From: an uncultured Candidatus Saccharibacteria bacterium
Lineage (GTDB): Bacteria > Patescibacteriota > Minisyncoccia > UBA6257 > UBA9933
Assembly: GCA_964642155.1 (NCBI GenBank)
Contig: CAZXNT010000001.1
Coordinates: 65,238-129,237 of the forward strand
Direction of reading: 5' to 3'
DNA: 64,000 nucleotides
Shown: positions 897-44,826 of the stretch, one piece after another
Position numbering within the stretch: the first letter of the stretch is position 1
How the letters are laid out: every line of letters starts with the position of its first letter
Translations under genes and position numbers: made by a program
Notes under the pieces: model-generated
Told to the model about the DNA's origin: nothing
The model's input: the letters and a program-made list of their open reading frames with translations, nothing else
Database searches by the model: none

Positions 897-3137
897 TTAT
901 GGAGTGGGTGCGGTAGCCGCGGTAGCCATGGTTGAAGGCGCTCCTCCTTCAAATATTCTGAAATTTTTAAAAATAGTTTGGATGTCTTTTTTGTCGAGAT
1001 TGGGATTTGCGTTTTCAAAATCGGCTTGAAAATTATTTACTACTTTATAACCTCCCATATTGGGCAACATTGAAGAAATAATAGCAAAATTATGGCCGAG
1101 AGCGATGGAAATTTGTTTAGCTAATGATTTTTCATCGCTGTCCCTAATTCCCAAATTGCCATAAATTCTTTTAAGAGCTTTACCGATATCAGCGGCATCG
1201 GATTTTTTAAGCCCTCCATAAAATTTCTTCGCTGCGACTGCAAATTCTTTGCTATCTGTGCCATGTTCCTTACGTGCATTAACCATTTCATTTGATTCTC
1301 CTATTTTTTTCTCAACAGCATTAAAATCCATTTTACTTCTTGCATAAAGATTCTTTATTGAATCAGGTATAAGATTATTTTTCAGCCAATTATGTTTTGC
1401 TAGGTCGTCGTCCCTTATATCTTCATATTTACCAGTTCCCCTTTCTCCTACTTTAGTTTGAATTTTCCTTCCTGTTGGAACTTTTATTTTATTTCCTTTA
1501 TCATCAGTCAAATTCGATTCTCGCATCTCATCAGTCTCTTCCATTATAGGCTCCATTATTTCTTCTCTTCTTATTCCTCCAGGAATATTTACTTTGGGAA
1601 GATTATTTAATATATGCTCGCTTAATGCCACCTTCCGCCCGCCAGGCATCAACATACTATCACTTGATAATTGAGCCATTGTTTGAGCCATTGTTAATTT
1701 TGACACTTCACTCTTATATCTTTCAGGTTCTCTTTCAGCAGGAGCGGATAAATTTGCCAGAGTACGAGCTTTAAGTCCATAATAATATCTTCCGAGCATG
1801 CTCCTGGATTTATCAGAGGCCTTTTCAGACGCTTCTATTGATTTATCTCCCCACTTCGCCGCGCCTGCTAATCGACTATATCCACCACGAAGACCACCCA
1901 ATGTTTTCCTCCCCGCCCACGCGCCGGCGCCTTTGCCGGCTTTTTGCGCCAGATTCATTGCTATATTCGCTCCGACAATACCCATTAAATTTGCCACATA
2001 AAGTCCGCCCAACATAAAACCAATTAAAATTAACATACTGCCAACATTTTCTAAAAATCCTTGCTGTCTAAATGTTCCACTCAAAACTTTTTGGACGTCC
2101 GCTTCTTTGAGTATTGGCATAAACTCAATTGATTTAATTGATAAATACATAAAAAAAGACATTACTGGCATAAAAAAAGTCCATCGCAAAAAATTATCCC
2201 ACCACTTCTTCCATAAATGTTGCGTTGACGGTAAAATCCAACACAACCAAGCTAAAGGCGACAAAACCAAAATAAATCCCAATGCCACATATCTTATTAA
2301 AAGCATTACAAAAGTTGCGAGTAAGGTAAGAACTCCTAAAAAGCTGAAAATTACGGAAAAAAATAGACTAGCAATCATAGTTAAAAATTCTGTGCTTAAG
2401 TTATCAAAACCCCCTTTTTCTTTTGCTGCTGTAAGTGCTGTATTCAAGTCACATTTACATGTAAATTCCGCTAAAATTCCAGCTCGCCAAGTACTAGCTC
2501 TTTTTGTTGTACCTTCTTCTGCTCTTAAACATGCCCCATTTGTCGAATCTACAAAATTCTCTTCTATCCAATTACAATTTTCATCGCCAACATTCATCAA
2601 CCGTTGATTATTAAAAACTGACCCTAAAGTATCGGCTGCTGTTCGTGGACCTAATTTACTCGCGTCTTGAAAATATTTTGCCGTGATATCAGACACACTA
2701 ATAAACGCACCGGCAATCACCAAGCTAAAATTCACTAAAAGCGCGGTGACAATCAATTTCCAAAGAGTTTGTTTTATGGCGTAATTTTCCAAGCGAAAAA
2801 TTGTGGCAAAAGCGATAATAATAATCGCCAAAACAAAACCGAGATTAGCAAAATTTAAAACTATATCCCAACCAACTCTAACTGCTTGGTTATTTAAAAT
2901 CCCTTCGTTAAAACCTATCGCCCATTGCACTAAATATGCGCTGAGGGCAAAAAATACTCCTCCAATAAAACCGATTATATAATTTAAAATATATGTCGTG
3001 AATCCGATTGCGCCGCTTAAAATATAATCCATACCATCTGCATGCGCTTCTTCCGGAACAAGCACAACAATAATCGCAACTATTGCAATTAACACCGTCA
3101 ACCCTATTTTTTTATTTTTTAAAAAATAAAAAGTCAT
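897..3137 (-). CDS. polytopic membrane protein with VirB6/TrbL-like topology and a ~330-aa hydrophilic C-terminal extension
   Basis: Signal peptide followed by at least six hydrophobic helices, a Cys-containing loop of about 130 aa, and a long charged tail. It overlaps the upstream gene by 4 bp, indicating an operon. The family assignment rests on topology only. Confidence 0.35.
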   Translation of the reverse strand: MTFYFLKNKKIGLTVLIAIVAIIVVLVPEEAHADGMDYILSGAIGFTTYILNYIIGFIGGVFFALSAYLVQWAIGFNEGILNNQAVRVGWDIVLNFANLGFVLAIIIIAFATIFRLENYAIKQTLWKLIVTALLVNFSLVIAGAFISVSDITAKYFQDASKLGPRTAADTLGSVFNNQRLMNVGDENCNWIEENFVDSTNGACLRAEEGTTKRASTWRAGILAEFTCKCDLNTALTAAKEKGGFDNLSTEFLTMIASLFFSVIFSFLGVLTLLATFVMLLIRYVALGFILVLSPLAWLCWILPSTQHLWKKWWDNFLRWTFFMPVMSFFMYLSIKSIEFMPILKEADVQKVLSGTFRQQGFLENVGSMLILIGFMLGGLYVANLMGIVGANIAMNLAQKAGKGAGAWAGRKTLGGLRGGYSRLAGAAKWGDKSIEASEKASDKSRSMLGRYYYGLKARTLANLSAPAEREPERYKSEVSKLTMAQTMAQLSSDSMLMPGGRKVALSEHILNNLPKVNIPGGIRREEIMEPIMEETDEMRESNLTDDKGNKIKVPTGRKIQTKVGERGTGKYEDIRDDDLAKHNWLKNNLIPDSIKNLYARSKMDFNAVEKKIGESNEMVNARKEHGTDSKEFAVAAKKFYGGLKKSDAADIGKALKRIYGNLGIRDSDEKSLAKQISIALGHNFAIISSMLPNMGGYKVVNNFQADFENANPNLDKKDIQTIFKNFRIFEGGAPSTMATAATAPTP

Positions 3138-5047
3138 TGCAATATTATGTTATCGCTGAATGTGTTTGAATAAGCGTTTGCCGCGTTGCGGAACCTCACA
3201 TAAACCGTTTTTAATCCGGCTCCGGCCGTTAAGGTCCAATTTCTCGTCGTTGAATAAGCTTCCCAAAAAGAGTTAAAGAAAACTATATCATTGGAAATCA
3301 TCATTTCCGTAACATTAACTATCCCGGAAGTGCTGGAAGCGGCGTTTAATCTTAATACTATATTGACATCCGTGGTTGTGTCCGCTCCGTCATTTATCGC
3401 AATCGGAGCGCTGCAAACCGCCAATCTTGCTGAAACAGCGCTGTTTTGAGCAATCGCGGCATCTAATCTGGCTTGCGCGTCTCTTATCGGGTCGTAAGTT
3501 GGATTAGTAATTTGTCTATTGGTCATATTCTGATTGCTTCTATTTATAAACTCGTTATAACGTTCTAAAATTACCGACCATGCCGCCGTGTCTGACGGGC
3601 TAGTCGCTCTAATGTCATTAATCAGCTGGTCGGCTTCCGATTGAGCGTCGCCTTGAGCCAAAAGATTGTCCACTTCGCTTTGAGCTGTTGCGATTTCATT
3701 CGCGCCGACTGAACATCCGCGAGATTGCATATCTTGAAACATCGCGAGTGTTGAACTTGCGTAAACTAATGTTTCTTGAGTTATGGATGACGTATCAACG
3801 CCTATGCCATTAGCCGCCGCCCTTCTAACTTCACCAATCATCATTTCTTTATCTTGCCCCTGCTCGCTCGCCCTCATATCGGCATATTCTTCGGGATAAT
3901 AATCCGGTTCCGCGTCCTTGTCCGATTCTTTCATTTCAGATAAACCTTTTTCCAATAACCGGTTAATCACTGCGTTAACCAAAGCCGAAACCCAAGAGCT
4001 GATATTGGCGGCCCATGCCGAATCGGTTGTAATGGCGCTGCCAACCGCGTCGCCAACAAGAGCGCCGGGCGTGGTTGTTTCCATATTCTTCGGGTCGCAA
4101 TACGCTCCGGTTGTGTCTTGTTTATAACCTTTATCACCCATCTCTTTATCAAATTGACCCCTTTTTTCTACACCCTTATCACTTTGCTCCCAATCTTTCA
4201 CGCATTTATTATAATCATCCTGCTTTTTTTTCACCGTTGCCTCATCATCAGTTCCCTTAAAAATTGGACTAGCGCACGCAGAATCAGAGTTTGCAGTAGC
4301 ATCCCAAGTAGTTCCCCCTCCTCCAGGTTGAACCTTGCCTTTATAATCCTTAGAAAATTCTGCCTCTTCTGCCGTCTTTTTACACCTTTCCACTCCTAAA
4401 AATCCTTTGCCTGACAACGCTTTTTGGCCGGCGACTTGAACTGCTTTGGCTTGTTTAAGCATTTTTTCGTCTTGTATCATCAGTGCCGCGCCGAAAAAAT
4501 TATTTTGCGGCTCCCAACTCGCCAAATATCCCTCCCAACCACCGACTGAAAAATCAACATAAAAATCCTTAATGTTTTTCACGGCTTTATCCAAGGTGCA
4601 AGAAACTCTCTGGCTGAATTTCGGCACCGGCAAAAACGCCAATTTCAATTGCAAACCGAACGGCGAACAAAGGTCCGCCAAAAGAAGGTCTCTTGATATG
4701 GATTCAAAAGCAATATCGCCGGCGTCTTTCAAAAATCCGTCCCAATCGGTTATAAATTTCGGGTCGCCGCCGCCCTGAACCCATTTGACGGTTTGGTCAA
4801 CGATATAATCTATAATGCGTTTAGCAACGATATCGCGCATCACTTCTTTCCAATTTGTTTTTATCCATTCAAATATACTTCTCCCTAACTTTCCAGCAAG
4901 TATTAGGAAATCAGTAACTATGTTTGAAAATGCCGCTTCCGCCTTATTAGGAGTCAATTTAAAAAATCCGGTTCTTAAAAATCCCGGGGAATTAAAAACC
5001 AGCAGAAAAATAATTAGAAAAATTATTGTTTTAGAAAAAAAGTTCAT
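3134..5047 (-). CDS. large secreted hypothetical protein (637 aa)
   Basis: N-terminal signal peptide MNFFSKTIIFLIIFLLVFNS. Cys-rich, Asp/Lys-rich middle region. Translationally coupled to its neighbours (ATGA overlaps at both ends). Confidence 0.5.
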   Translation of the reverse strand: MNFFSKTIIFLIIFLLVFNSPGFLRTGFFKLTPNKAEAAFSNIVTDFLILAGKLGRSIFEWIKTNWKEVMRDIVAKRIIDYIVDQTVKWVQGGGDPKFITDWDGFLKDAGDIAFESISRDLLLADLCSPFGLQLKLAFLPVPKFSQRVSCTLDKAVKNIKDFYVDFSVGGWEGYLASWEPQNNFFGAALMIQDEKMLKQAKAVQVAGQKALSGKGFLGVERCKKTAEEAEFSKDYKGKVQPGGGGTTWDATANSDSACASPIFKGTDDEATVKKKQDDYNKCVKDWEQSDKGVEKRGQFDKEMGDKGYKQDTTGAYCDPKNMETTTPGALVGDAVGSAITTDSAWAANISSWVSALVNAVINRLLEKGLSEMKESDKDAEPDYYPEEYADMRASEQGQDKEMMIGEVRRAAANGIGVDTSSITQETLVYASSTLAMFQDMQSRGCSVGANEIATAQSEVDNLLAQGDAQSEADQLINDIRATSPSDTAAWSVILERYNEFINRSNQNMTNRQITNPTYDPIRDAQARLDAAIAQNSAVSARLAVCSAPIAINDGADTTTDVNIVLRLNAASSTSGIVNVTEMMISNDIVFFNSFWEAYSTTRNWTLTAGAGLKTVYVRFRNAANAYSNTFSDNIILQ

Positions 5048-5883
5048 TTGATTTCCAACGCTTTTTCTTTATATTCTTGTTGAATTTTAAATTCCTCGTC
5101 AACCATATCAGGAATCATCTGCACTAATAAATCCGCTCTTATCGGGTCTTGCTTAAAAACCGTTATTCCCCGATATAAATTTTCAAATTTTTTAAACAGA
5201 ACCAAATATCTTTTATGAAGAGCAAGCCAATCAGAAGGAACCTCCGTATTTAAAAACCCGTTGAACATATTTTGATAAGTGTCGGCAAGATTATTGGCTT
5301 TGGAAATATCTCCGACAATCAAACTCTCTAAAACTTTAATCGGATTTTTATAAAGATTGTTTGAATTATTATAAATTATATTGATGGTCGCTTCAAGATA
5401 AATCATCTTCTTTTGGGAAGAATTATCGGAAGAAATTTTTAAATCTTTGTCGCTAATGGAATAATTTTCCAACAAAAGCGACGGGTCGCTGATTTTGGCG
5501 AGCGTTTGCTTAATCAACTCCTGTCCTTCCTGGCTTTGCGGGTCAAAACCGCTTGAAGGGTCAATACCCCTTTGGTCTAAATCTTTCATTTGCGTAAACA
5601 TTGATTGAGCGACAAATTCCGTTAAATTAATCTGATCGGCAACTTGGCTATTATTTAAATTTTCCGCCTGCCTGCTGGTAGGTATGGCCTTAATTTTTTG
5701 AAAATTATCTTTCACCCATTGAAGCGGATTCTTGCCGACCAAATCAACAAAATTTCCGGAAAAACCGTCCTTTGATTTCGCGCCGTCCGGTTTAATTCCG
5801 GCGCCGGATTTAACAATAAAATACGCTCCGACCAAACCGGCAATAATGATAAAAACCGCTTTTGCGGAAATAAATTTTTTCAT
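5044..5883 (-). CDS. membrane-anchored hypothetical protein, first gene of the operon
   Basis: Likely start is MKKFISAKAVFIIIAGLVGAYF (signal-anchor) at 5883. The ORF-track extension to 6189 has no start-like context and would overlap the plus-strand gene. Confidence 0.45.
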   Translation of the reverse strand: MKKFISAKAVFIIIAGLVGAYFIVKSGAGIKPDGAKSKDGFSGNFVDLVGKNPLQWVKDNFQKIKAIPTSRQAENLNNSQVADQINLTEFVAQSMFTQMKDLDQRGIDPSSGFDPQSQEGQELIKQTLAKISDPSLLLENYSISDKDLKISSDNSSQKKMIYLEATINIIYNNSNNLYKNPIKVLESLIVGDISKANNLADTYQNMFNGFLNTEVPSDWLALHKRYLVLFKKFENLYRGITVFKQDPIRADLLVQMIPDMVDEEFKIQQEYKEKALEIK

Positions 5884-5995
5884 TTTTATAACATAATAAT
5901 AATATAAAAAGCTATTTAAAGCAATGAAAAAAAGTGTTAAATATTGGATTGACATTGAATTGGACGCTGATATAATTTTATAAACATTCACAAAC

Positions 5996-7477
5996 ATGCC
6001 ATTAATAATAAAAATTTTAATCCCAGGTATAATTATAGCGGTGATAGCCGCCGGTGGCGTAATAGTTTGGAAAATGTCGTCGCAACCGACTCCGGATTTG
6101 ACGGCCGTGGCGGTTCTTAAAGCGAACGATATTGACAATTCAATCGCCGTCCCTTTTGCAACGCCCGTGGTTCTAAGTTGGGAATCCAAGAATGTCGGCG
6201 ACTGCCTTATTTCCGGCGATTGGTATAGTCCGGTTTCAAATTCCGGCTTTCAATCTGTCGGCGAAATTAAAAAATCAACAAATTATGTTTTGGTCTGCGT
6301 TGACAACGAAGGCAAGGATGTTTCCGATTCAATTGCCGTTAATATTGACGAGAAAACAATTCCTCAAAACGTTTTACTCACGGATTTGTTTAAAGATTTC
6401 CGATATCTCTGGAAAAAAGAACTTTGCTTGGGATTAACAAACGACCCCGATGTCGTGGCTTTGCAAACCGCCTTATTTTTTGAAGGCATACTTTCTCCTC
6501 AGGAAAAAATCACCGGAAATTACGATAACGACACCTTTTTGGCCGTTAAAAAATTCCAGGAAAATTACGGCATTGTTCCGCAAACCGGCTGTGTCGGTCC
6601 TCAAACAATAGCGAAATTGAACGCGCTTTTTTATTATTATAATTACAGCGACCAGTCCGCCTTCCAAGAATTGAGTCAAAAACAAATAACAACAACTCAA
6701 CAAAAAATATCTTTATATCAACAAACAAAAAGCGCGCCGGCAACGGTTCCCGCAACTCCCATTGTTCCCGCCCCCACTCTAACTCCCACCTCAACTCAAA
6801 TTCGTCCGCCGATAACCGCCCCGACGACTCCAACAATAACTACCCCCACTGCAAGACCTATTGTTGACCTGAAAGTTAATGGTTTAAGTCGCAGCACAAC
6901 CAGCGTCAAAAAAGGAGAAACTGTTACCCTTACTTGGACGTCAAAAAACGTGAAATCTTGCGTTGCTTCCGGAAGTTGGACGGGAACAAAACTGATTTCA
7001 AACACAACCGGAGAAAAAACAGAACCCATTAATAAATATTCCACTTTTAAATTAACTTGCGAAGGAGAAAATAACCAAAACGCCGCTGATTCGGTTTATG
7101 TGAGCATACCTTATGTTTATACCCCATCAACAACTGAAACTGAAAAAGCTCCTGTTATTGATAAAATAGAACCATATGCGGTTGTTCTTAATCCCGTTTC
7201 TCAATTATATGATGGAACAATAAAGATTATAGGGTCTGGATTTTCTCCTGGCTCAATAATTCATTTTGCAGGAAGAGATATAACTCCTGGCCAAGGTTCA
7301 ACAGAAAACACTTTAAAATTTAGCTTACCATTTTTTCTCCAACATGGGGAAATTGCCAACCCTAAATGTCCTTTAAATTATCAGTATCATGAAATAACAG
7401 TTGAAGAAGGTGGACTTATGGGTGAAGATGGACTCATTAGTAATAAAGAAACTTTTTGTATTTATTTTGGTAATTAA
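5996..7477 (+). CDS. cell-envelope protein: N-terminal TM, PG_binding_1-like peptidoglycan-binding domain, Pro/Thr linker, two Ig-like Cys-pair domains
   Basis: The motif LAVKKFQENYGIVPQTGCVGPQTIAKL matches the peptidoglycan-binding domain signature. PT-rich linker PATVPATPIVPAPTLTPTSTQIRPPITAPTTPTITTPT. Repeated modules of the form TWTSKNVKSC...TFKLTC. Confidence 0.6.
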   Translation: MPLIIKILIPGIIIAVIAAGGVIVWKMSSQPTPDLTAVAVLKANDIDNSIAVPFATPVVLSWESKNVGDCLISGDWYSPVSNSGFQSVGEIKKSTNYVLVCVDNEGKDVSDSIAVNIDEKTIPQNVLLTDLFKDFRYLWKKELCLGLTNDPDVVALQTALFFEGILSPQEKITGNYDNDTFLAVKKFQENYGIVPQTGCVGPQTIAKLNALFYYYNYSDQSAFQELSQKQITTTQQKISLYQQTKSAPATVPATPIVPAPTLTPTSTQIRPPITAPTTPTITTPTARPIVDLKVNGLSRSTTSVKKGETVTLTWTSKNVKSCVASGSWTGTKLISNTTGEKTEPINKYSTFKLTCEGENNQNAADSVYVSIPYVYTPSTTETEKAPVIDKIEPYAVVLNPVSQLYDGTIKIIGSGFSPGSIIHFAGRDITPGQGSTENTLKFSLPFFLQHGEIANPKCPLNYQYHEITVEEGGLMGEDGLISNKETFCIYFGN

Positions 7478-7478
7478 T

Positions 7479-8480
7479 TCAGCTATTAGATAAAGCGATG
7501 ATTCGCTCAACGCTCAAATTCTGCGGCCTCGCATTCGGCTCAACACCGATTAATTTTAATTTTTCAATAATTTCTTCTTTGATTTTTGTCTTATTTATAA
7601 TTTGTGGTTCATTTTTATTACATTGTGCCTGCGATAGCAGATCTAATGTAATATTATTTTTATTTACTTTATCTCCCGCTATCCTATCGGATAGCGTGCT
7701 ATCCGATAGGATAGCTGTATTTTTGCCCGCAATTTCTGACATTAAATTATTTACAATCGTCTTCCTCGGCTGTTTAAAAAGAATTTTGATAAATTTATAA
7801 TATTTCTCATTATTACATTTCAACCGCGATAGCAGTTGAAATGTAACCGGCGTTAATTTAATAATCGCGCTATCCACTTTCGGCGCCGGTTTAAAATCAT
7901 TACGCGACACATAACCGATAATTTTCGGCTCAGCCCAAATCTGAACGCTAGCTGCCAATAAATTAATTTGCGGCGACTTGGCGCAAACGCGCTCCGCCAC
8001 TTCTTTTTGAATTAATAAAACAATTAATTCCGGCTTGCCTGCCCCGCTGTGCCCCGTAGTGAGTTTTGCTCTACTACTGGTGTAAGAAGCTTGCTTTTCT
8101 TCAGAGTACTCCAACCCGCCCAAAATCCTGAATAAATAACCAGTTATGTAATAGGGGATATTACCAACGATTTTATAATTCTTAATTCTGAATTCTGAAT
8201 TCTGAATTAAACGCGGAAGCACTTTCAATGCGTCACCTTCAATAATTTCTATATTTTTATCTCCCTTAAATTTTTCTTTAAAATCTTCGGCTAATTTCTT
8301 ATCTTTCTCAATCGCAATAATTCTACATTCTGAATTCTGCATTCTTAATTCTTTAGTAAGTTCCCCATGCCCGGGCCCAATTTCAATCACAACATCGCCG
8401 TCTTTCAATTCCAACGCTTCAACAATTTTCCGCAATTTCTCCTTATTTTTCAAAAAATACTGTCCAAGATAATTTCCCAT
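7479..8480 (-). CDS. ksgA: 16S rRNA (adenine1518/1519-N6)-dimethyltransferase KsgA/RsmA, carrying several in-frame repeat insertions
   Basis: Conserved motifs GQYFL, VVIEIGPGHGELT and GNIPYYIT. At 333 aa it is longer than typical KsgA. The extra segments correspond exactly to DNA repeats (two 34-bp palindromes, two GAATTCT tracts, one ATCCTATCGGATAGC palindrome). Confidence 0.85.
   Translation of the reverse strand: MGNYLGQYFLKNKEKLRKIVEALELKDGDVVIEIGPGHGELTKELRMQNSECRIIAIEKDKKLAEDFKEKFKGDKNIEIIEGDALKVLPRLIQNSEFRIKNYKIVGNIPYYITGYLFRILGGLEYSEEKQASYTSSRAKLTTGHSGAGKPELIVLLIQKEVAERVCAKSPQINLLAASVQIWAEPKIIGYVSRNDFKPAPKVDSAIIKLTPVTFQLLSRLKCNNEKYYKFIKILFKQPRKTIVNNLMSEIAGKNTAILSDSTLSDRIAGDKVNKNNITLDLLSQAQCNKNEPQIINKTKIKEEIIEKLKLIGVEPNARPQNLSVERIIALSNS
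7813..7846. repeat. 34-bp palindromic repeat TTACATTTCAAC-CGCGATAGCAG-TTGAAATGTAA. Family copies also at 7618-7651, 8515-8548, 9206-9239, 16057-16090 and 44096-44129.
   Basis: Read directly. Conserved core CTGCGATAGCAG flanked by TTACATT/AATGTAA arms. Three copies lie in-frame inside ksgA and the Mur ligase gene, three are intergenic. Confidence 0.85.
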
Positions 8481-8581
8481 TAATATCTATCATATCTATA
8501 AATATTTCATCAAATTACATTTCAACCGCGATAGCAGTTGAAATGTAATTTAAATTTATAATTTATATTATATAATTTGAT

Positions 8582-9193
8582 TTAATTAAATTCAGAAAAA
8601 ATTTTTTCGTCATCTATTTCGCCAACAGTTATAATTCTAATATGATTTTTTAATTTTTTATTAATAATTTCTTTATATAATTCTTTTGATAACGGCCATT
8701 TGCCGATAAAAACGCTTTTTTGAAACGGCCGATATCCCAACCCAAATAATTTGAATCGCAACCATTCTCTTTCTTTTTTTATTTTTTCCGGAATATCAAA
8801 CATTACAATTCTCCATTTTCCATCCCATTCTTTTTTTTTATTATTTTGTTGAATTTTTTTAAAATATTTTAATCCCAATAAAGTCAATTTATATTGTTCA
8901 TCATTTTTTTCAATTAATCCTTTTTGTTGTAAACGATATAAAATAACTTTTGCGTTATTCTTTTTTAAATTTTTAAGAAATTCTTTAATCTCAATATAAT
9001 CGGAAATAAAATCTCTACTATTCCTCATCCCAAAATCAAAAGCTCCGCCCACTCCCATTCTATTACTCATTAATATTCCTTCTCCTGTTTTAATAATTCC
9101 TTGCCCAATTCCAAAAATAACTGCCAAACTTGCCGCTCCTAAACTATATGGTAAATCTTTAAATTGTTCTTTAATTCTTTTTCCTCCTTTCAT
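8582..9193 (-). CDS. PaaX-like winged-helix regulator (Cas2/VapD-fold C-terminal domain)
   Basis: C-terminal motif WDGKWRIVMFDIPEKIKKEREWLRFKLFGLGYRPFQKSVFIGKWP resembles the PaaX signature. N-terminal wHTH ILYRLQQKGLIEK. Bracketed on both sides by copies of the 34-bp palindrome. Confidence 0.4.
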   Translation of the reverse strand: MKGGKRIKEQFKDLPYSLGAASLAVIFGIGQGIIKTGEGILMSNRMGVGGAFDFGMRNSRDFISDYIEIKEFLKNLKKNNAKVILYRLQQKGLIEKNDEQYKLTLLGLKYFKKIQQNNKKKEWDGKWRIVMFDIPEKIKKEREWLRFKLFGLGYRPFQKSVFIGKWPLSKELYKEIINKKLKNHIRIITVGEIDDEKIFSEFN

Positions 9194-9248
9194 CTTTCTA
9201 TTTTATTACATTTCAACCGCGATAGCAATTGAAATGTAACCAAGTAAA

Positions 9249-11120
9249 TCAATACTCAATATAACGCTCTTCGTCGTCCAGAAAATCGCTTAATGTTTCA
9301 AATTTATCGCGATTATTACTTGTAAACTCCACTGTTTCCGGAGCGATTTCATAAAGAAAACGCGAGGGGAAATTATAGAAATTTAAAAATAATTCTTTTT
9401 TGGCGCGTGTCATCGCCACATACATCAAACGGCGCTCTTCTTCAATTTCTTCATCATTATGATATGACATTTGGTGCGGCAACAGTCCTTCATTACAACC
9501 AACGATAAAAACCGCGTCAAATTCAAGCCCTTTGGCCAAATGAATCGTCATTAAATTTATAATATTTTGAGATTTATCTACTAATAGGCGAGATTGAGAA
9601 TCTAAAATTTGAGATTTTTTTATGGCATCACTTGATTGAAAAAGCGAGATTTTTTCAAGAAAATCTTGCAAATTATTGAATTCCGAAGCATAATAAATAA
9701 GTTCATTAATGTTTTCCTCGCGTTCGCGAAAATTATCGTAATTCTTTTTTAATTGGTTTAAATATCCTGTGATTTCCAAAATAAAGCTAATTAACTCAAC
9801 TGGCGGAAGTTTTCCGGTCATTTTCGGAATTTTATCTTGAATTTCCAAAAATGGTTTTTTCAAAAAATTGGTTTTTATTCTCTCAAAACTGACCGTATCG
9901 TTCGGATTAAACGCCCAACGAAGAACCGCCACAATGTCTTTAATTTCTTTGCGTTCATAAAATTTCACGCCGCCGAAAATCTTATAAGCGATGTCGTTTT
10001 CAATAAACGCGCTTTCAATGGCGCGCGACTGCGCGTTAGTGCGATAAAGTATGGCGATAGATTTATTAGAAATTGCCTCCCTTCGGGAGGTCTCCCGCAG
10101 GGAGAGAAATTGGAAATTGGAAATTTTTTCCGCTATCCACTCCGCTTCCCCGTCTTCATCATAATGTTCAATCGCTTTTACCAAATTGCCATCGTCATTT
10201 TCCGTCCAAAGATTTTTATGCTTTTGAAATTTATTTTTGGCTATCAAAGAAGAGGCAGCCTTGATGATGTTGCCGGTTGAACGATAATTTTGTTCTAAAA
10301 AAACGGTTTTTGTTTTCGGCCAATCTTTTTCAAAATTCAAAAAAATTTTAAAATCCGACCCCCTAAATTTATAAATTGACTGTTGGTCGTCTCCGACAAC
10401 GCTTAAATTTTTATGTCCACTAGCCAATAATTTTACAAAAACATATTGCGCCGTATTTGTATCCTGAAATTCGTCAACAAGAATATAACGGAATTTTTTC
10501 TGATATTTTTCAAGAATATCCGGATGATTTTTAAAAATTTTTACCGGCTCCGTGATTAAATCGTCAAAATCAAAAGCATTATTTCTCCGCAGGGTCGTTT
10601 CATATTCCTTAAAAAGAAATTTGACAGTATCATCTTCACTCTCGGGATCGGATAATTCACTTTTAATCCGTGAAAATTCTTTTCGTAAAAATAACGGGTT
10701 AACCTCCTTCTTTTTTTCGTATTCCGAAAAATTAAGATTTTTAACAATTGTTTTTATGAGCCGGAGTGAGTCATCGCCGTCAAAAATGGAAAAATTCGGC
10801 GTTCGGCCGACAAATTTAACTTCGTTTTTTAAAATTCGCGCCCCGAGAGAATGGAAAGTGCCGATGAACGGCTGAACTTTATTTTTTATTCTTAATTCAT
10901 TATTCATTATTCTATTTTTCATTTCTTCCGCCGCCTTATTGGTAAAAGTGATGGCCACAACGCTCTCTGGATCAACTCCGGAAGCCAAAATAGCCGCCAA
11001 ACGGCTGGTTAAAGCCCTGGTTTTCCCGCTTCCGGCTCCGGCAACTATCAAAATCGTCCCCTCTAAGTTTTCCACAGCCTCCTGTTGCTTTTTGTTAAGG
11101 CTTTGATATAATGGGTTCAT
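9249..11120 (-). CDS. uvrD: ATP-dependent DNA helicase UvrD/PcrA family
   Basis: Q-motif and Walker A LNKKQQEAVENLEGTILIVAGAGSGKTRALT. UvrD blocks FTNKAAEEM and YRSTGNII. The likely start is MNPLYQSL at 11120 rather than the ORF-track 11225. Contains an in-frame hairpin element at about 10069-10127. Confidence 0.85.
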   Translation of the reverse strand: MNPLYQSLNKKQQEAVENLEGTILIVAGAGSGKTRALTSRLAAILASGVDPESVVAITFTNKAAEEMKNRIMNNELRIKNKVQPFIGTFHSLGARILKNEVKFVGRTPNFSIFDGDDSLRLIKTIVKNLNFSEYEKKKEVNPLFLRKEFSRIKSELSDPESEDDTVKFLFKEYETTLRRNNAFDFDDLITEPVKIFKNHPDILEKYQKKFRYILVDEFQDTNTAQYVFVKLLASGHKNLSVVGDDQQSIYKFRGSDFKIFLNFEKDWPKTKTVFLEQNYRSTGNIIKAASSLIAKNKFQKHKNLWTENDDGNLVKAIEHYDEDGEAEWIAEKISNFQFLSLRETSRREAISNKSIAILYRTNAQSRAIESAFIENDIAYKIFGGVKFYERKEIKDIVAVLRWAFNPNDTVSFERIKTNFLKKPFLEIQDKIPKMTGKLPPVELISFILEITGYLNQLKKNYDNFREREENINELIYYASEFNNLQDFLEKISLFQSSDAIKKSQILDSQSRLLVDKSQNIINLMTIHLAKGLEFDAVFIVGCNEGLLPHQMSYHNDEEIEEERRLMYVAMTRAKKELFLNFYNFPSRFLYEIAPETVEFTSNNRDKFETLSDFLDDEERYIEY

Positions 11121-11808: not shown

Positions 11809-13382
11809 CTCTTCTCTCTCACCCTATATTGAAATGCCTCCGCCAAGTGATTGCCTTTTATTTTTTCCGAATTTTCCAAATCGGCGATTGTTTGAGCGAT
11901 TTTTAAAACTCGGTAATATCCCCTGGCGGAAATAAAAGATTTTTCCATTATATTTTTTAATACTGATTCCGCGTCATCGGCCAACGCAACTATTTCATCA
12001 ACCATTTTTGAACTCATTTCGGAGTTTAAATAAATTTTCGGCCTAGTTTTCACAAAACGATTCTTCTGAATTTCACGCGCTTTTAAAACCGCCTCTTTTA
12101 TTTTTTTATTAATATTATTATCGCGGCTCGGCGCTTCTTTTCTTAATTCTTCTATTTTTATTCGTGGCACTTCAATTTGAATATCAATTCTATCCAGAAG
12201 CGGACCGGAAATTTTCTTTTGATAACGAAAAACTTCGTTCGCCGTGCATTGGCATTCTTTTTCCGGCGTTTCAACTCCGAAATAACCGCAAGGGCAAGGA
12301 TTCATCGCCGCCACCAAAGAAAATTTCGCCGGAAAATCAAGTGAGCCCTTGGCGCGAGAAATACAAACATTACCGCTTTCCAATGGCTGACGTAAAGATT
12401 CTAAAAGGTCGCGGCGAAATTCCGGAATTTCATCAAGAAACAAAACTCCCCGATGCGCCAAACTTATTTCTCCGGGCTTGGGATTCGCTCCGCCACCAAT
12501 AACCGAAACCATTGAAGCTGAATGGTGTGGCGCCCGAAACGGCCTAAAATTCACGAACGGATTATTGCCCAAAGCGCCAGCAGCGCTGTAAATCTGCGTT
12601 GTTTCAATGATTTCGTCTAGCGAAGGCAAAGGTAAAATCGAAACTAAGGCCTGAGCCAACATTGTTTTGCCGGCTCCCGGCGGTCCAAACATTAAGATAT
12701 TATGTCCGCCGGCAGCCGCTACCGTTAAAGCCCGCTTGGCGCTTTCCTGCCCCTTAATGTCCGAAATATTAACTAACGACTCTTCATTTGTTGAATCAAA
12801 TTCAATCTTGAACGGCTTTTGAAAAACCATTTCTTTTCTTTCTTCAAGAAAATCAATCAATTCAATTAAATTTGAAACTGGAACAATATTTATTCCTTTT
12901 ATAATCGCGGCTTCAGCCGCGTTTTCTTTCGGTAAAAATAAAAATTTAAATCCGAGTTTTTTTGCCAAACGGCTGATGCTTAAACTTCCGGAAATCTGCC
13001 TTAATCCCCCGTCTAAAGAAAGTTCGCCGATGAAAATTTTATCCTTAGTTTCAAAATTTTTAATTTGTTTAGTGGCCAGTAAATAGCCGGTGGCAATCGC
13101 CAAATCGTATTGCGAACCGGTTTTTTTAATGTCAGCCGGCGCGAGATTAACCGTAATTTTTCTGTTTTCTTTTGTCGGCGGCTTGATGCCGGAATTTTTT
13201 AAAGCCGAACTTACGCGCTCTTTCGCCTCTTTCAACGCCCTATCTGCCAAACCGACTATATTAAACGAATGAAGACCGACGTTAATGTCGGTCTCCACTT
13301 CAATAAGCCTGGCGTTAATTCCTTCAAGTTCAGCTGAATAAACTTTAGAGAAATTTTTCATAGTATTCGCGAATAATGCCAA
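11805..13382 (-). CDS. comM: YifB/ComM family Mg-chelatase-like AAA+ ATPase
   Basis: Walker A MFGPPGAGKTMLAQAL. Overall ComM-like layout. C4 cluster CPCGYFG...CQC. Confidence 0.85.
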   Translation of the reverse strand: MALFANTMKNFSKVYSAELEGINARLIEVETDINVGLHSFNIVGLADRALKEAKERVSSALKNSGIKPPTKENRKITVNLAPADIKKTGSQYDLAIATGYLLATKQIKNFETKDKIFIGELSLDGGLRQISGSLSISRLAKKLGFKFLFLPKENAAEAAIIKGINIVPVSNLIELIDFLEERKEMVFQKPFKIEFDSTNEESLVNISDIKGQESAKRALTVAAAGGHNILMFGPPGAGKTMLAQALVSILPLPSLDEIIETTQIYSAAGALGNNPFVNFRPFRAPHHSASMVSVIGGGANPKPGEISLAHRGVLFLDEIPEFRRDLLESLRQPLESGNVCISRAKGSLDFPAKFSLVAAMNPCPCGYFGVETPEKECQCTANEVFRYQKKISGPLLDRIDIQIEVPRIKIEELRKEAPSRDNNINKKIKEAVLKAREIQKNRFVKTRPKIYLNSEMSSKMVDEIVALADDAESVLKNIMEKSFISARGYYRVLKIAQTIADLENSEKIKGNHLAEAFQYRVREKS

Positions 13383-13438
13383 TTTTTTATCAATAATGCG
13401 AATAAATTATTAGCATTATTTGCGAGCAATTCGCATTA

Positions 13439-16046: not shown

Positions 16047-16109
16047 TAATTTAAAATTACATTACGACTGCTATCGCAGGTGTAATGTAATTATTAAAAT
16101 TTTTAATTA

Positions 16110-18353: not shown

Positions 18354-19561
18354 CTAAGATTTAACACAATAAACAGGATCGTCGCAATTCACTCTATAAA
18401 TAATTCCATCTTCATCATTTTCGAATAAGAGATTATTTTTATCTTCTAAAATAGCGCCTAAAATATAACTTTGACCGTCATCGCTGATACTATATGAATA
18501 AAATCGAATTGTTTTATCTTTATCTTTAATTAAAATGTCTTTTAAAAAATGCAATGAATTAGCTATGACGAGTGATTTCCCGTCAAATTTCAAATAGTCG
18601 CTTTTTGAAGCACTTGGATAATATTTTTTTGCAAGGTAATAATCGTTTAAATAAATCTGAATTTTGGAAAAATCAGACATCACCTGTTGTGCGGGATGCG
18701 CTTTTTGTTTAATTTTATTAAATCCAATACCAACTACTGACGCAAACAACACAAACAATATTATTAATAACGCTATAATCGCTCCAAATGTCGCGCAAAA
18801 AACAAAAAATCTCTTTTTAGTTTTAATCGGTTGATTAACTAACTCCGGCTTAAGCGAAATTAATGAGCGATATAAAATAAAGGAGTAAGCCACGGCAAAT
18901 GGCAATAATAAGAATGTGTATAAAATCTCATCTACTAATACTAATAAAGTATTATCTATAATATTTTTGTTAAAAATATCAAACGGGGAAATAATCACAA
19001 AACTAATACCAGTTATTATTAATGAACAAATTAATATTCTCCAAAAAATCTTCCACCAACAACCAGCCACATAATCTTTGCTTCTTAGAAGCGCTTGTAG
19101 ACCATATAAATTTTGGTCAATTAAAATATAGGCGGCAAAAATGAACCAGACGCCAAAAATGAAAATTGGAATAATCCCCATTACTAATCCGCCTAAACCA
19201 ATAAAAAAGCCAAGAACAACAAGCCATAAATAAGATTTGAATTTTGAAAGAGCTGATTTATAGGCGGCAATTACACCTAAGGATTCATCACAAAAAGCGC
19301 AAATTAAAGCCAACGGAGTAAATAAAAACAAAATAATAAACCAGCTAATCAGAATTATAAAACCTATTATTACTAAAAATATGTTGCTTTCAAAAACATA
19401 GGTGATTTGCAATAGTACCGAAAAAACAAATGGTAGTAAGCTAATAAAAATTAGTGTCTTAAAGCGATTCTTATATATTAACCAAGAAGACCCAAAAAGT
19501 TGACGGATAGAAATTAAAGATTTATTTGTGTTATTTAATTTTTGAGCTTTGAATTCGTCCA
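18354..19561 (-). CDS. polytopic membrane protein with C-terminal extracytoplasmic domain
   Basis: Multiple TM helices. The likely start is MDEFKAQKL at about 19561. The ORF-track extension to 19631 runs into the duplicated gap 3' fragment. Confidence 0.45.
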
Positions 19562-19583
19562 TTTTTAATTTAATTATATTGTT

Positions 19584-19667
19584 TCCGCCGCTTTCAAAAC
19601 GTGCTTTTTCAGCATTGCCACATATCCCCATTCGTTATCGTACCAGGAAAGAATTTTCACCAAATTC
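19584..19667. repeat. 84-bp direct repeat, identical to 20182-20265 (duplicated 3' end of gap)
   Basis: Identical strings tccgccgctttcaaaacgtgctttttcagcattgccacatatccccattcgttatcgtaccaggaaagaattttcaccaaatt at both positions. The DUF4258/DUF2283 pair lies between them. Confidence 0.9.
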
Positions 19668-20171: not shown

Positions 20172-21176
20172 TTACAAATTCTCCGCCGCTTTCAAAACGT
20201 GCTTTTTCAGCATTGCCACATATCCCCATTCGTTATCGTACCAGGAAAGAATTTTCACCAAATTGCCGTCGATTACTTTGGTAAATTTTAAATCAACGAT
20301 CGCTCCGTACGATTCAGAAATAATATCCGAAGAAACAATCTGGTCTTCAACGGTTTTTAAAATTCCCTGCCATTTTTGAGATCCTGTGGCTTTTTTCAAA
20401 ATATCATTAATTTCTTCAACCGAAGTTTTTCTTTTGGAAATAAAAGTGATGTCCGCGATGGAACCGGTAATCATAGGCACGCGCAAAGCAATGCCGTCAA
20501 ATTTTCCTTCCAAGTCTTTAATGATGCGATTGGTAGCAATGGCCGCGCCGGTAGTTGAAGGAATAATATTTTGCGAAGCGGCCCGGCCGCGCCGAAAATC
20601 GTTGCCCTTCACCGGACTGTCAACGGTTGTTTGAGTATTAGTCATTGCGTGAATAGTGTTTAAAACTGCTTTTTCAATTCCCGGATTTTCATTTAAAATC
20701 GCCATAACCGAAGCAATGCCGTTAGTGGTGCAGGAAGCGTTGGAAGAAATTTTAACGGATTTCAATTCATCGTCATTTATGCCGATTAAAATCGTCTTGC
20801 CCAAATCGCCGTCTGCGTCTTTTGCCGGCGCGGTCAAAACAACTCTTTTGGCTCCGGCGTCCAAATGCGCCTTGGCTTTTTCATAAGATTCAAAAACTCC
20901 CGTTGATTCAACGACAATATCCACGCCCAAATCTTTCCACGGTAATTTTGTCGGGTCTTTTTCCTGTAAAAATTTTATATTGTCAATCGGAGTTTCAAAA
21001 CGCCCGTAAACCGAATCGTACTTAAATAAATAACGCAGATTTTCAACGTCGCCCAAATCATTTATCGCGACAATTTCAATCCGCTGGCTAACGGATGGGT
21101 CGCTTAATATCTGCCTAAGGAATAATCGCCCAATCCTTCCAAAACCGTTTATCGCTATTTTAATTTTTTTATCCAT
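20172..21176 (-). CDS. gap: type I glyceraldehyde-3-phosphate dehydrogenase
   Basis: KIAINGFGRIGRLFLRQ and SNASCTTNGIASV active-site motifs. Confidence 0.9.
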   Translation of the reverse strand: MDKKIKIAINGFGRIGRLFLRQILSDPSVSQRIEIVAINDLGDVENLRYLFKYDSVYGRFETPIDNIKFLQEKDPTKLPWKDLGVDIVVESTGVFESYEKAKAHLDAGAKRVVLTAPAKDADGDLGKTILIGINDDELKSVKISSNASCTTNGIASVMAILNENPGIEKAVLNTIHAMTNTQTTVDSPVKGNDFRRGRAASQNIIPSTTGAAIATNRIIKDLEGKFDGIALRVPMITGSIADITFISKRKTSVEEINDILKKATGSQKWQGILKTVEDQIVSSDIISESYGAIVDLKFTKVIDGNLVKILSWYDNEWGYVAMLKKHVLKAAENL

Positions 21177-26754: not shown

Positions 26755-27266
26755 ATTTTAGAATTTTTATTTAATTTTATTTCTATTAATAAATCAATTT
26801 CTCCATTTGAATTGTAAAGTTTAAATAAAGCCCCGTCATCATCTTTAAATGTTAATTTAATTAACGATAATTTAGATATCATCTCTTCTAATCTATTATT
26901 TGTTTTTAATTTCTCTAATCCTTCCTTCAATTTTGGGTCAACGCTCCCGTCGCTTCTTAACACAAAATATTTACTCGCCAACTCAATATCTTCTTTCTTT
27001 AACGCCTCAATAAACATTTGCAAAGTTTCTTCCGGAGTTTTACCGCCATAAATATCTTCTTCCATCGCTTTATTATAATTTTTTTCCCAAGTAAGATATT
27101 TTTCATAATTTTTCTGCGTTTCGCGTTGATATTTTGCCTGCGGACTTAAATATTTCCCCCATAACAAAAAACCTCCAATCGTAAAGATAATAATTCCTAA
27201 AAAACCTATTACAAATTTTCGGAAATTCAACTTATTTTTAAATTCATTATTAATTTGATTATTCAT
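26733..27266 (-). CDS. small membrane-anchored protein, paralog of 27833..28366
   Basis: N-terminal TM. Shared block YGGKTPEETLQMFIEAL...ELASKYF and C-terminal IWKIESI. Confidence 0.5.
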   Translation of the reverse strand: MNNQINNEFKNKLNFRKFVIGFLGIIIFTIGGFLLWGKYLSPQAKYQRETQKNYEKYLTWEKNYNKAMEEDIYGGKTPEETLQMFIEALKKEDIELASKYFVLRSDGSVDPKLKEGLEKLKTNNRLEEMISKLSLIKLTFKDDDGALFKLYNSNGEIDLLIEIKLNKNSKIWKIESI

Positions 27267-27280
27267 ATGATTTATTAAAT

Positions 27281-27817: not shown

Positions 27818-27832
27818 AATTTTAATTACTAA

Positions 27833-43404: not shown

Positions 43405-44826
43405 TTATATTATTACATTGTGGGCTTTTTTATTTTCCAAAATTTCCTCCACGATTTTTTTTTCGTCCCACGGAATTTTTTTATTGCCCGCAACGCACAT
43501 TGACGACTCCCCTCCCTTCCCCGTTAAAATAACAACATCTCCTTTTTGCGCCAAAAACAGCGCCTTTTTAATCGCTTCTCTCCTATCTATAATTTCATAA
43601 ATTTTGGAAATTGGAAATTGTCTGGCTTCGCCAGATCTCGCGAAGCGAGAGAAATTGGAAATTCCAGATTTTATTTCCGATAAAATCTGGCTGGGTTTTT
43701 CGTCATATGGGTCTTCATTCGTCAAAATAACTTCATCGCAATATCGCGTTGCTATTTCGCCCATTTTCGGCCTTTTCCATTTATCCCGTCCTCCGCCCTG
43801 CGCCCCCAATAAACATATCAACTTTGAATTCTGAATTCTGAATTCTGAATTCTGAATTGTTTGATATACTGCTTCCAAACTCACCGGTTCATGGGCGTAA
43901 TCAACAATCACGGTAAAATCACTTACCTTGATAATCTCCATTCTGCCTGCCGGCGATTTTGCCTGCGCCAACGCTTCTTTTATTTTTTCAATCGGGATAT
44001 TTAGCGACAAAGTAACCGCAATCGCCGCCACGGCATTATAAACATTAAATTCCCCAACTAATAGTATTCCAATAATTAATGGTATTTCAATTTTATTACA
44101 TTGCATCTGCGATAGCAGATGTAATGTAACTTCGAATTTTGTTTTATCTGAATATAATTTAATATTTTCTACTTCTAAAATTTTATTTACTTTTGACTTT
44201 TGATTTGAACTTTTGACTTTTATTCCGTATCCGTATTTATTTTTAATTTCCGGTTTTAAAAAATATTCAACGTTTTCATCGTCTAAGTTATAAATCCCAA
44301 CACCATTTTTCTTTCGTGCCACTCTTTCAAATAATTTTATTTTTGCGTTCCGATAATTTTCAAAACCGCCGTGCCGTTCAATATGTTCAGGCGATAAATT
44401 TGTAAAAACCGCGATATCATAATCAATAAAACGATGTCTGTATTGCAAAATCCCCTCTGAAGAAGTTTCTACCACCGCGTATTCGCATTTTTCCGCAACC
44501 ATTTGCCTCAGCAATTTTTGCAGCTGAAACCTGCCGAGCATTGTCTGCTTTGATTCGTTTTTCCATTCCCGCTCGCCTATCCGAAAATCCACCGTGGTTG
44601 CCATTCCGACTTTATGGCCGCTGAAATTCAAAATTTGAGCGATTAAATTGCAAGTGGTGGTTTTTCCTTTGGTTCCGGTAACACCGATGACTTTCATTTT
44701 GTGAGACGGAAAACCATAAATCAAGGCTGAAAAAAATGCCAGAGAAAAATGATAAATCGGCTGGCCGAGCCGATATAAAAATTTCGGAATAATATGTTTT
44801 TCAAAAAATCTTAAAATTTTCTCCAT
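43405..44826 (-). CDS. murE: Mur ligase family protein (MurE-like), with in-frame repeat insertions
   Basis: VIGVTGTKGKTTT P-loop, NLSPEHIERHGGFENYRNAK and a C-terminal GGGRDKWKRP Mur-ligase motif. Contains a 34-bp palindrome, a (GAATTCT)4 tract and a double-hairpin element. Confidence 0.7.
   Translation of the reverse strand: MEKILRFFEKHIIPKFLYRLGQPIYHFSLAFFSALIYGFPSHKMKVIGVTGTKGKTTTCNLIAQILNFSGHKVGMATTVDFRIGEREWKNESKQTMLGRFQLQKLLRQMVAEKCEYAVVETSSEGILQYRHRFIDYDIAVFTNLSPEHIERHGGFENYRNAKIKLFERVARKKNGVGIYNLDDENVEYFLKPEIKNKYGYGIKVKSSNQKSKVNKILEVENIKLYSDKTKFEVTLHLLSQMQCNKIEIPLIIGILLVGEFNVYNAVAAIAVTLSLNIPIEKIKEALAQAKSPAGRMEIIKVSDFTVIVDYAHEPVSLEAVYQTIQNSEFRIQNSKLICLLGAQGGGRDKWKRPKMGEIATRYCDEVILTNEDPYDEKPSQILSEIKSGISNFSRFARSGEARQFPISKIYEIIDRREAIKKALFLAQKGDVVILTGKGGESSMCVAGNKKIPWDEKKIVEEILENKKAHNVII

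Follow-up and report, generated by a model that had tools for sequence, protein, structure and literature searches.

Rickettsia palindromic elements (RPEs), which are ~100–150 bp long and encode a conserved peptide of 30–50 amino acids (aa), are described as specific to Rickettsia and are found between genes as well as inside unrelated housekeeping genes (Ogata et al., 2000, 2002, summarised in PMC10969869). A comparable situation is reported here for a stretch of 64,000 nucleotides (nt) from an uncultured Candidatus Saccharibacteria bacterium of the Patescibacteriota (GenBank assembly GCA_964642155.1, contig CAZXNT010000001.1, positions 65,238 to 129,237; hereafter the window), in which the ksgA gene carries short palindromes and periodic tracts within its reading frame, and in which one family of 34-nt palindromes is found both inside ksgA and on either side of a neighbouring gene for a PaaX-like protein. 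By analogy, the ksgA modules would function like RPEs, and their layout would resemble that of a REP-RAYT system or of a repressor-operator pair. As with RPEs, insofar as the cited summary describes them, the palindromes are both intergenic and in frame within unrelated housekeeping genes, at places that the protein fold tolerates and in a host with a reduced genome; what sets them apart from those descriptions is the size of the modules (30–69 nt), their division into several unrelated families and the patescibacterial host. Furthermore, and unlike in RPEs, one family is tied to the neighbouring PaaX-like gene and has a positionally conserved intragenic copy.

Much of bacterial diversity belongs to the Patescibacteria, which have very small genomes and cannot be cultured by themselves, and to our knowledge almost nothing is known about their gene regulation and genome change. 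In the literature on Patescibacteria and the candidate phyla radiation (CPR), no description of coding palindromes or of elements resembling repetitive extragenic palindromic (REP) sequences was found, and a search for literature on the PaaX-like/Cas2-like winged-helix family returned nothing specific.

Palindromic sites beside a dedicated gene are known from several systems. The hrcA gene, which encodes a winged-helix regulator, lies beside a palindromic site, the controlling inverted repeat of chaperone expression (CIRCE, 9-N9-9), and heads the classical grpE-dnaK-dnaJ operon. Intragenic auxiliary operators also have precedents, namely lac O2 and gal OI. The REP-associated tyrosine transposase (RAYT) is a Y1 HUH transposase of the IS200/IS605 type, the gene of which sits between its REP sequences. 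REP and REPIN sequences with a RAYT gene were reportedly described by Nunvar in 2010 and by Bertels and Rainey in 2011. The palindrome of the window resembles the REP-RAYT arrangement in being an imperfect palindrome of 20–40 nt that is present in multiple copies, often just 3' of genes, that brackets one conserved gene and that has its own variant in each lineage of that gene; it differs in that the bracketed gene encodes a PaaX-like protein with a winged helix and a Cas2 fold and without a Y1/HUH domain, in the missing GTAG head, in the intragenic location of four of its seven copies and in the restriction to three copies in most lineages. It is like HrcA-CIRCE in lying beside the gene of a winged-helix regulator, in one relative (L119) with the very layout of the hrcA operon and in others beside clpB, and like a repressor-operator pair in that the site adjoins a putative regulator gene and co-varies with its lineage (18 of 18 loci). 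Unlike HrcA-CIRCE, the protein is of the PaaX-like family and the 34-bp site, which is a predicted one, has a CGATCG centre.

The 34-nt palindrome and the PaaX-like gene

We read ksgA as an intact gene whose translation runs through DNA modules of three kinds, of which the 34-bp family is tied to the PaaX-like protein, and put the probability of this reading at roughly 0.6. The palindrome has the form TTACATT-N6-GCGATAGC-N6-AATGTAA and occurs seven times in the window, compared with 0 expected from 100 shuffles. With a covariance model derived from 25 distinct copies, the same seven and no diverged extra copies were retrieved from the window; on 80 more distant KsgA loci the model returned nothing except a weak match in L032. 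Three copies form a trio around ksgA and the open reading frame (ORF) next to it:

7479..8480, minus strand: ksgA/rsmA coding sequence, intact, 333 aa, identified from the ORF list, Pfam and solved KsgA relatives
7813..7846, minus strand: 34-nt palindrome at "site 5", in the linker between the KsgA domains, read as VTFQLLSRLKCN, scoring 54 bits with the covariance model
8515..8548, minus strand: 34-nt palindrome between the PaaX-like ORF and ksgA, found by pattern search and covariance model
8582..9193, minus strand: PaaX-like ORF (winged helix-turn-helix and Cas2 fold), 203 aa, bracketed by the palindromes at 8515 and 9206
9206..9239, minus strand: 34-nt palindrome that follows the uvrD stop codon and precedes the PaaX-like ORF, found by pattern search and covariance model

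In Pfam, the bracketed ORF matches PaaX_M (3e-17), which is the Cas2-like domain at the centre of PaaX, and gave no match to Y1_Tnp. A profile of 23 family members retrieved Escherichia coli PaaX (8a39), winged helices of the PadR/MarR type and Cas2 from the PDB, and a Foldseek search with the predicted structure (predicted local distance difference test score, pLDDT, 69) placed PaaX and Rv0674 closest, followed by Cas2, with MarR proteins matching the N-terminal half and Cas2 proteins the C-terminal half. Two motifs of the family's Cas2-like domain, FDIPE and QKSV, do not vary.

The association of gene and palindrome was found from both sides. A scan for the palindrome in a genome collection with one genome per species returned 26 stretches, all from metagenome-assembled genomes of Patescibacteria, and a PaaX-like homologue lies beside the palindrome in loci that had been fetched for the palindrome alone (L009, L030, L007, L021, L012 and L027), including four without ksgA nearby (L009, L030, L007 and L021). 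Eight more diverse PaaX-like homologues were fetched with their neighbourhoods, and in all 18 loci examined the palindrome is present on at least one side of the ORF, in 14 of them on both. All relatives are metagenome assemblies, and copy numbers per genome are lower bounds; the same elements are seen in independent assemblies from NCBI, JGI, ENA and Logan. The gene contexts number at least four, namely uvrD/murD-ORF-ksgA, ORF-clpB, ORF-grpE-dnaK-dnaJ and the ORF beside a tRNA synthetase gene. Throughout, the flanking palindrome has a constant build (34 nt, 7-nt ends, CGATCG-like centre) and a lineage-specific sequence:

TTACATT...AATGTAA: window, L012, L027
TTACACT...AGTGTAA: L112, L117, L118
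TATA(A/G)CACTT...AAGTG(T/C)TATA: L113, L115
TAACAA...TTGTTA: L036, L119
TGTAA(T/C)...TTACA: L114, L116

Directly upstream of ksgA, the ORF is found in the window and in L012, L027, L036, L038, L112, L113, L115, L117 and L118. This adjacency is kept down to ~45% protein identity and is therefore old; a recent cassette between uvrD and ksgA, which had been considered for the ORF, was dropped for the same reason. In L119 the homologue (10001–10519) heads a grpE-dnaK-dnaJ operon and is preceded by two tandem palindromes (9914–9989), in L114 (palindrome 10611–10648, clpB at 11135) and L021 it adjoins clpB, and in L026 a palindrome (6466–6499) follows clpB. The homologues at chaperone genes may constitute a heat-shock regulator of Patescibacteria. 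The half-site of L115, TAGCACTT, resembles TTAGCACTC, which we take to be the CIRCE half-site, a likeness that is offered as a lead and not as a test.

The palindrome in the KsgA linker

The third copy of the trio lies in the interdomain linker of KsgA (~aa 186–212) and is of the same lineage-specific variant as the copies flanking the ORF in the window, L012, L112, L113, L117, L118 and L036, so that it shares its termini and centre with both ORF flanks in at least seven lineages. Among the 120 closest KsgA homologues, the corresponding peptide, x-T-x4-[S/P]-x3-C-[N/Y], is present in 30, invariably at the same site, and the general 34-nt pattern has three matches in 360 kb of other patescibacterial KsgA loci, each of them at an ORF flank or in the ksgA linker. 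The ends and the centre of the linker copy are conserved and its arms are wholly changed, with the surrounding gene being ~74% identical. Its peptide is modelled as a short helix (pLDDT ~80). Judged by the homologues, the linker palindrome is old and has a fixed position; its trio membership and its fixed position argue that it is not a casual insertion, and the initial annotation, which had counted it among the tolerated insertions, does not hold in this respect.

In the stem of the 34-nt palindrome, all six variable pairs covary, with 45 double-change cells compared with 17 in shuffles, and none of 500 shuffles reaches the observed value. Since the three trio copies share lineage-specific sequence, the PaaX-like protein most likely has its cognate recognition sites in the palindromes, which it would bind probably as a dimer on the two 7-nt half-sites and the centre. 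The basal trio would thus comprise a copy upstream of the PaaX-like gene, one between this gene and ksgA, and one in the KsgA linker that would act as DNA site and as codons at once. Such a trio could represent a regulatory system whose auxiliary site is intragenic, as in the case of lac O2 or gal OI, or alternatively a maintenance system of the REP-RAYT type, and the PaaX-like protein may accordingly have a regulatory or a mobilising role. The operator role is favoured by the PaaX fold, the chaperone-gene contexts and the confinement to the trio in most lineages, the REP-like system by the extra copies in the window lineage, the copies in the Paceibacterota genome DeMMO6_38 and the near-perfect, covarying arms. 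The positions of the sites are ambiguous with respect to promoters, because each lies 3' of one gene and 5' of the next.

Several observations weigh against the assignment of the palindromes to the PaaX-like protein. L001, L003 and L004 retain the linker palindrome without a PaaX-like gene in the spacer between uvrD and ksgA; given the age of the adjacency, this is most simply explained by loss or relocation of the gene, which may be present elsewhere in these three genomes. In L032, the copy in ksgA is of a differing type from the palindromes that flank the local, more distant ORF homologue. At least 11 copies of the family are present in DeMMO6_38, mostly just 3' of stop codons, a placement that is more typical of REP or terminator hairpins than of operators. 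The covariation stems mostly from lineages with near-perfect hairpins, the arms being only about half complementary in L112 and L118, and it could have arisen by quasi-palindrome template switching or gene conversion and not by selection. In addition, the invariance of the outer 7 nt and of the centre in the covariation test is an ascertainment effect, because the search pattern had fixed them.

Taken further, Patescibacteria of the Paceibacteria type would carry an undescribed module of a PaaX-like protein and a 34-bp site, with a standard site inside ksgA, where 12 codons of this essential-type enzyme would serve at the same time as a cis-element, with dnaK and clpB contexts that suggest a stress regulon in place of HrcA/CIRCE, and with a site that in some lineages has become REP-like and spreads into further genes in frame; we propose this tentatively and give it somewhat less than an even chance. 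If it is true, either a regulatory site would have turned selfish or selfish DNA would have been recruited for regulation. Together with its candidate cognate protein, the palindrome family offers a protein-DNA pair that can be tested directly, one site of which is intragenic, in a group that lacks genetics.

ksgA and its inserted modules

The identity of ksgA is supported by a match to Pfam RrnaAD (PF00398, 1.6e-43, aa 5–263) and by Bacillus subtilis KsgA (6ifs, 1.8e-25) as the best solved relative, which aligns in two blocks flanking a 69-nt insert. As initially annotated, the ORF encodes 333 aa and retains the motifs GQYFL, GPGHGELT and NIPY, so that the features of KsgA/RsmA membership (RrnaAD, S-adenosylmethionine-binding GxGxG, N-(I/L)-P-Y and collinearity with solved structures) are all present, and the protein P0001, on a 170-kb NCBI contig, matches it exactly. 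The window comes from a Wolfebacteria-like host; homologues of its proteins are labelled Candidatus Wolfebacteria, Parcubacteria or Patescibacteria by their sources, and the GC content of the window is low (~38%). The 120 closest homologues are between 223 and 334 aa long (median 273), and an alignment with 24 close homologues shows that they differ chiefly by the presence or absence of blocks at a few recurrent hot spots, with the same peptide block found at differing sites across orthologues (KNYELRI; E.KQASYGAG). Besides the linker copy, the gene contains the following modules:

7618..7651, minus strand: second 34-nt palindrome in ksgA, read as ITLDLLSQAQCN, within a 48-nt lineage-specific insertion
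7678..7715, minus strand: 38-nt palindrome with a 17-bp perfect stem (AILSDSTLSDRIA), encoding ILSDSTLSDRIA, single in the window
8038..8106, minus strand: 69-nt in-frame insertion of nested hairpins, aa ~124–146, the largest clean insertion
8177..8208, minus strand: 7-nt periodic tract, sense (AGAATTC)n, read as QNSEFRIKN
8319..8350, minus strand: 7-nt periodic tract, read as MQNSECRI

In alignments of the ksgA DNA with L001 (89% identical over 12 kb), CAYOSD01 (whose KsgA is P0012), L003 and L004, the 69-nt insert, which the initial annotation had overlooked, corresponds to a clean gap in L001 and CAYOSD01, and the 48-nt insertion at 7620–7667, which carries the palindrome at 7618, is missing in the same two. 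The 69-nt insert has no other copy in the window; a shorter relative of 12 aa (E.QQAVYGAGK) is found at the same site in P0010 and P0024 and at another site in P0054. The 38-nt palindrome, for which slightly wider bounds (7676–7716) had been given, is common to the window, L001, P0003 and P0011 and is missing in the otherwise near-identical P0023 and P0028 as well as in CAYOSD01/P0012; outside the window its only occurrence is the orthologous ksgA site of L001, and the claim that every segment is repeated elsewhere in the window fails for it.

The two heptamer tracts encoding QNSEFRI and MQNSECRI are real, at positions that have been corrected to those listed above. The window has ~21 nt (three heptamer units, ~8197–8217) more than L001, a difference that MAFFT splits into 17 + 4 = 21 nt, and the site of the 8319 tract holds a different periodic tract in L001 and CAYOSD01. 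Relative to B. subtilis KsgA, no more than 1–2 residues are gained through the heptamer tracts (~1 in the case of the 8177 tract) and three through the linker palindrome, and the 8319 tract runs from the last part of a native helix into the first part of strand β2 at pLDDT >90. The tracts thus replace native loop sequence and do not add to it, so that the description as extra peptide segments is correct for the lineage-specific inserts and not for the tracts, nor largely for the linker palindrome. The alignments with orthologues bear out the in-frame, lineage-specific nature of the 69-nt, 48-nt and 21-nt segments, all of which are missing in L001.

All ksgA modules are in frame and, as had been noted, none brings in a stop codon or a frameshift; stop-free frames of coding copies carry no evidential weight, because they are trivially true of intact genes. 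Only when read as (AGAATTC)n can (GAATTCT)n be coding, since on the other strand TGA comes into frame within three units, and this orientation is present in both genes that hold the repeat. An AlphaFold (AF2) model built on the alignment has a mean pLDDT of 76 with a core above 85, and falls below 50, without secondary structure, only at aa 1–5, 126–146 (the 69-nt insert) and 254–292 (the 38-nt palindrome and the 48-nt insert). The alignment with 6ifs likewise puts the extra residues between conserved blocks, and the two large extra blocks are therefore predicted to be disordered loops, matching the expectation that large extra segments map to loops. The linker site is in addition a general hot spot of module turnover, holding other repeat-derived peptides in L038 (3565–3705), L042 and L034, some from heptamer tracts (RIRNYESGIG, KNHESRIRN) and another being RIYTDKNTDLCG.

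Unrelated hairpin insertions (69-nt, 38-nt), which are lineage-specific, multiples of three and in loops predicted to be disordered, would represent the second kind of module, and periodic 7-nt tracts with turnover at two loop sites the third; selection would keep only stop-free, in-frame copies within tolerant loops. The 69-nt insert, the 38-nt palindrome, the GC-rich hairpins described below and the heptamer tracts are best read as tolerated hairpin or slippage indels, for which no partner was detected. On this reading, the inserts would be translated.

Dispersed copies and hairpin indels in other genes

The two copies at 7618–7651 and 7813–7846 noted initially are joined by five more, the two ORF flanks and three dispersed ones:

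16057..16090: 34-nt palindrome between two transketolase genes, with differing sequence in L001
42661..42694, plus strand: 34-nt palindrome inside glyA (serine hydroxymethyltransferase), read as LHYTSDSMSNV
44096..44129, minus strand: 34-nt palindrome inside a Mur ligase gene, VTLHLLSQMQCN

The copies outside the trio in the window lineage are thus those at 7618, at 16057, in glyA and in the Mur ligase gene, where the palindrome would have been copied in a REP-like manner to a second ksgA site, to two other genes and to an intergenic spacer. Although four of the seven copies lie inside genes, the three intergenic ones represent an enrichment relative to the small intergenic fraction. At the glyA site a relative carries another CGATCG-centred palindrome, the orthologous copy in the Mur ligase gene of L013 has different, compensated arms, and L001 carries a copy in its rpe-tkt spacer, at a place that lacks one in the window. 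Relative to transcription, intergenic copies have the asymmetric centre in either orientation (8515 and 9206 versus 16057; upstream versus downstream in L115; L001 274). Target-site duplications were detected neither in 41 palindrome copies nor at exact empty sites, and the flanks prolong the palindrome (R...Y, AG...CT) and are not direct repeats. At gathering thresholds, Rfam matched five tRNAs in the window and none of the hairpins.

Within genes, every single-block MAFFT indel of at least 9 nt between the window and L001 is a multiple of three, and short hairpin modules account for many but not all of these indels. At 98% identity, the ksgA genes of P0008 and P0018 are set apart by a single 30-nt GC-rich hairpin of a family (CCCGCC..GCCAAGGCT..GGCGGG, read as ..RRQGYGGQG..) that forms in-frame indels of 30–33 nt and is also found as a 33-nt hairpin in glyA (42224–42256) and in differing genes and genomes (L004 3290–3320; L006 28–58 and 376–406). 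In uvrD, two tandem mini-hairpins of 15 nt (30 nt, 10076–10105) form an exact in-frame insertion into a (CAATTTC)n tract when compared with L001, with no duplication of the target. The same two-hairpin module, consisting of 6-bp GC-rich stems with 3-nt loops, lies in a (CAATTTC)n/(GAAATTG)n tract of the Mur ligase gene (43622–43657), where the stems differ and are fully compensated, and the comparison with L013 reveals the same kind of in-frame hairpin indels in glyA and the Mur ligase gene. Perfect hairpins are in an only modest and uninformative excess genome-wide (25 versus ~16 in shuffles).

The hairpin indels in ksgA, uvrD, the Mur ligase gene and glyA thus amount to an in-frame colonisation of housekeeping genes across the genome in this clade. 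The functional analogy to RPEs drawn by the initial annotation therefore holds for the in-frame, lineage-specific insertions of tolerated hairpins, and it does not extend to size, host or the presence of several unrelated families; coding palindromes, so far regarded as a peculiarity of Rickettsia, where the RPE families are numbered 1–10, have a counterpart in an unrelated lineage with reduced genomes. Many length differences of housekeeping genes between close relatives are due to short hairpin modules, which are in frame where they lie within genes; this helps to account for odd low-complexity inserts in CPR proteins and bears on annotation, alignment and phylogeny.

Alternative explanations

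If the modules were selfish, RPE-like elements only, all segments including the linker palindrome would be neutral, tolerated mobile palindromes with no cognate host function. This would account for the presence/absence polymorphism among close genomes, for copies in unrelated genes, for large inserts in disordered loops and for three of seven copies being intergenic in a very largely coding window, as expected if coding insertions are selected against. It does not account for a linker copy that sits at one fixed position in 30 of 120 homologues, keeps its ends and centre while its arms change completely, and changes in concert with both ORF flanks in at least seven lineages, nor for the limitation of the family to the trio in most lineages (three matches in 360 kb elsewhere); moreover, no target-site duplication, parent insertion sequence with terminal inverted repeats or transposase was found among the palindrome copies and window ORFs (36 ORFs scanned for transposases). 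We consider this explanation unlikely. Somewhat less probable again is that the PaaX-like protein with its Cas2 fold is no transcription factor and acts, comparable to a RAYT, as a domesticated nuclease that maintains and copies the hairpins, as might be suspected from the palindrome-gene-palindrome layout in several contexts, the separate palindrome variant of each protein lineage, the copies dispersed in the window lineage and DeMMO6_38, most of which closely follow stop codons, and the invariance of FDIPE and QKSV in the Cas2-like domain. However, fold and profile are closest to PaaX, which is a repressor, and to Rv0674, an HUH/Y1 domain is missing, most lineages show no dispersal beyond the trio, and the ORF-grpE-dnaK-dnaJ layout with its two upstream palindromes as well as the ORF-clpB layout resemble a regulator with its operators.

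The palindromes might also act at the RNA level, as mRNA hairpins serving as terminators, stabilisers against 3' exonucleases, RNase sites or translation pause sites, with the coding copies selected for such a role. Compensatory changes in the stems, intergenic copies located 2–33 nt after stop codons and a partner with a Cas2/GhoS-type fold, which is known from RNases, would agree with this, yet the occurrence of the asymmetric centre in both orientations among intergenic copies disfavours a strand-specific role, the stems are AT-rich and not followed by a clear U-tract, Rfam matches are lacking at gathering thresholds, and a terminator within ksgA, glyA or the Mur ligase gene would be harmful, so that we regard an RNA-level function as improbable. 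The supposition that the segments are ancestral KsgA sequence or assembly artefacts is hardly credible: it is true that the places taken by the heptamer tracts and the linker palindrome are present in all KsgA proteins and that few residues are added there, but the 69-nt, 48-nt and 38-nt-palindrome blocks correspond to clean gaps in close relatives, the homologues vary from 223 to 334 aa through indels at a few recurrent hot spots, and the same elements recur in the independent NCBI, JGI, ENA and Logan assemblies. Judged by the orthologue alignments, this reading is largely refuted.

Further described repeat types were compared with the 34-nt palindrome. A MITE (miniature inverted-repeat transposable element) differs from it in combining terminal inverted repeats with a target-site duplication and in deriving from a parent insertion sequence, whereas the palindrome lacks this structure and no parent transposase was found. 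The cyanobacterial highly iterated palindrome 1 (HIP1, GCGATCGC) is shared as the palindrome centre in several lineages and also occurs within coding sequence, but the conserved unit here is the whole 34-nt palindrome and the octamer alone is not iterated. A HIP1-type or DNA-uptake-sequence-type iterated word was rejected on k-mer counts, as short words are not over-represented in the window: GCGATCGC occurs once (4.0 expected) and TTACATT 20 times (19.5 expected), 14 of the latter lying within the seven palindromes. A tandem interspaced guide RNA (TIGR)-Tas array was considered because of the build of conserved edge, variable part, conserved loop, variable part and edge. TIGR-Tas systems consist of tandem arrays of ~36-nt units with two spacers beside a gene for a Nop-domain Tas protein; this candidate was rejected, as the copies are solitary and at least 195 nt apart, the variable arms are complementary and no Nop-domain match was found among the ORFs scanned.

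Neighbouring genes and other repeats

Downstream of ksgA, several of the loci L112–L118 carry type IV secretion/conjugation-like genes (TrbL_3, PrgI, TraC-like, VirB4/P-loop_TraG). The window ORFs downstream of ksgA (897..6189) have no Pfam match and may be divergent counterparts of these genes.

An element of ~160 nt with terminal inverted repeats of ~20 nt (CCATCCCTCACCCTTCAAAGAT ... ATCTTTGAAGGGTGAGGGAT) is present in three intergenic copies (28363–28524, 50079–50234 and 55436–55595); it has the appearance of a MITE and no relation to the 34-nt palindrome. The 3' end of the glyceraldehyde-3-phosphate dehydrogenase (GAPDH) gene (20172..21176) is present as an exact direct duplication of 83 nt (19584–19666 and 20182–20264) bracketing ~515 nt, and an ORF without Pfam match (18354..19631) begins inside the downstream copy. 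At the same spot L031 contains a further insertion of 2.7 kb, beside a 34-nt palindrome, and the region resembles a hot spot of integration. A further family of intergenic palindromic motifs (GCGAATAATGC / GCATTATTCGC) is found at 13366–13428 and in L001 at 1186–1276, differs in presence or absence among close relatives and lies just upstream of start codons (..TTCGCGAATACTATG), so that it may be linked to promoters or ribosome-binding sites. Finally, three tandem paralogous ORFs of 177–178 aa without Pfam match, which share repeated DNA blocks, occupy the part of the window with the lowest GC content (~25%, 26733–28366).

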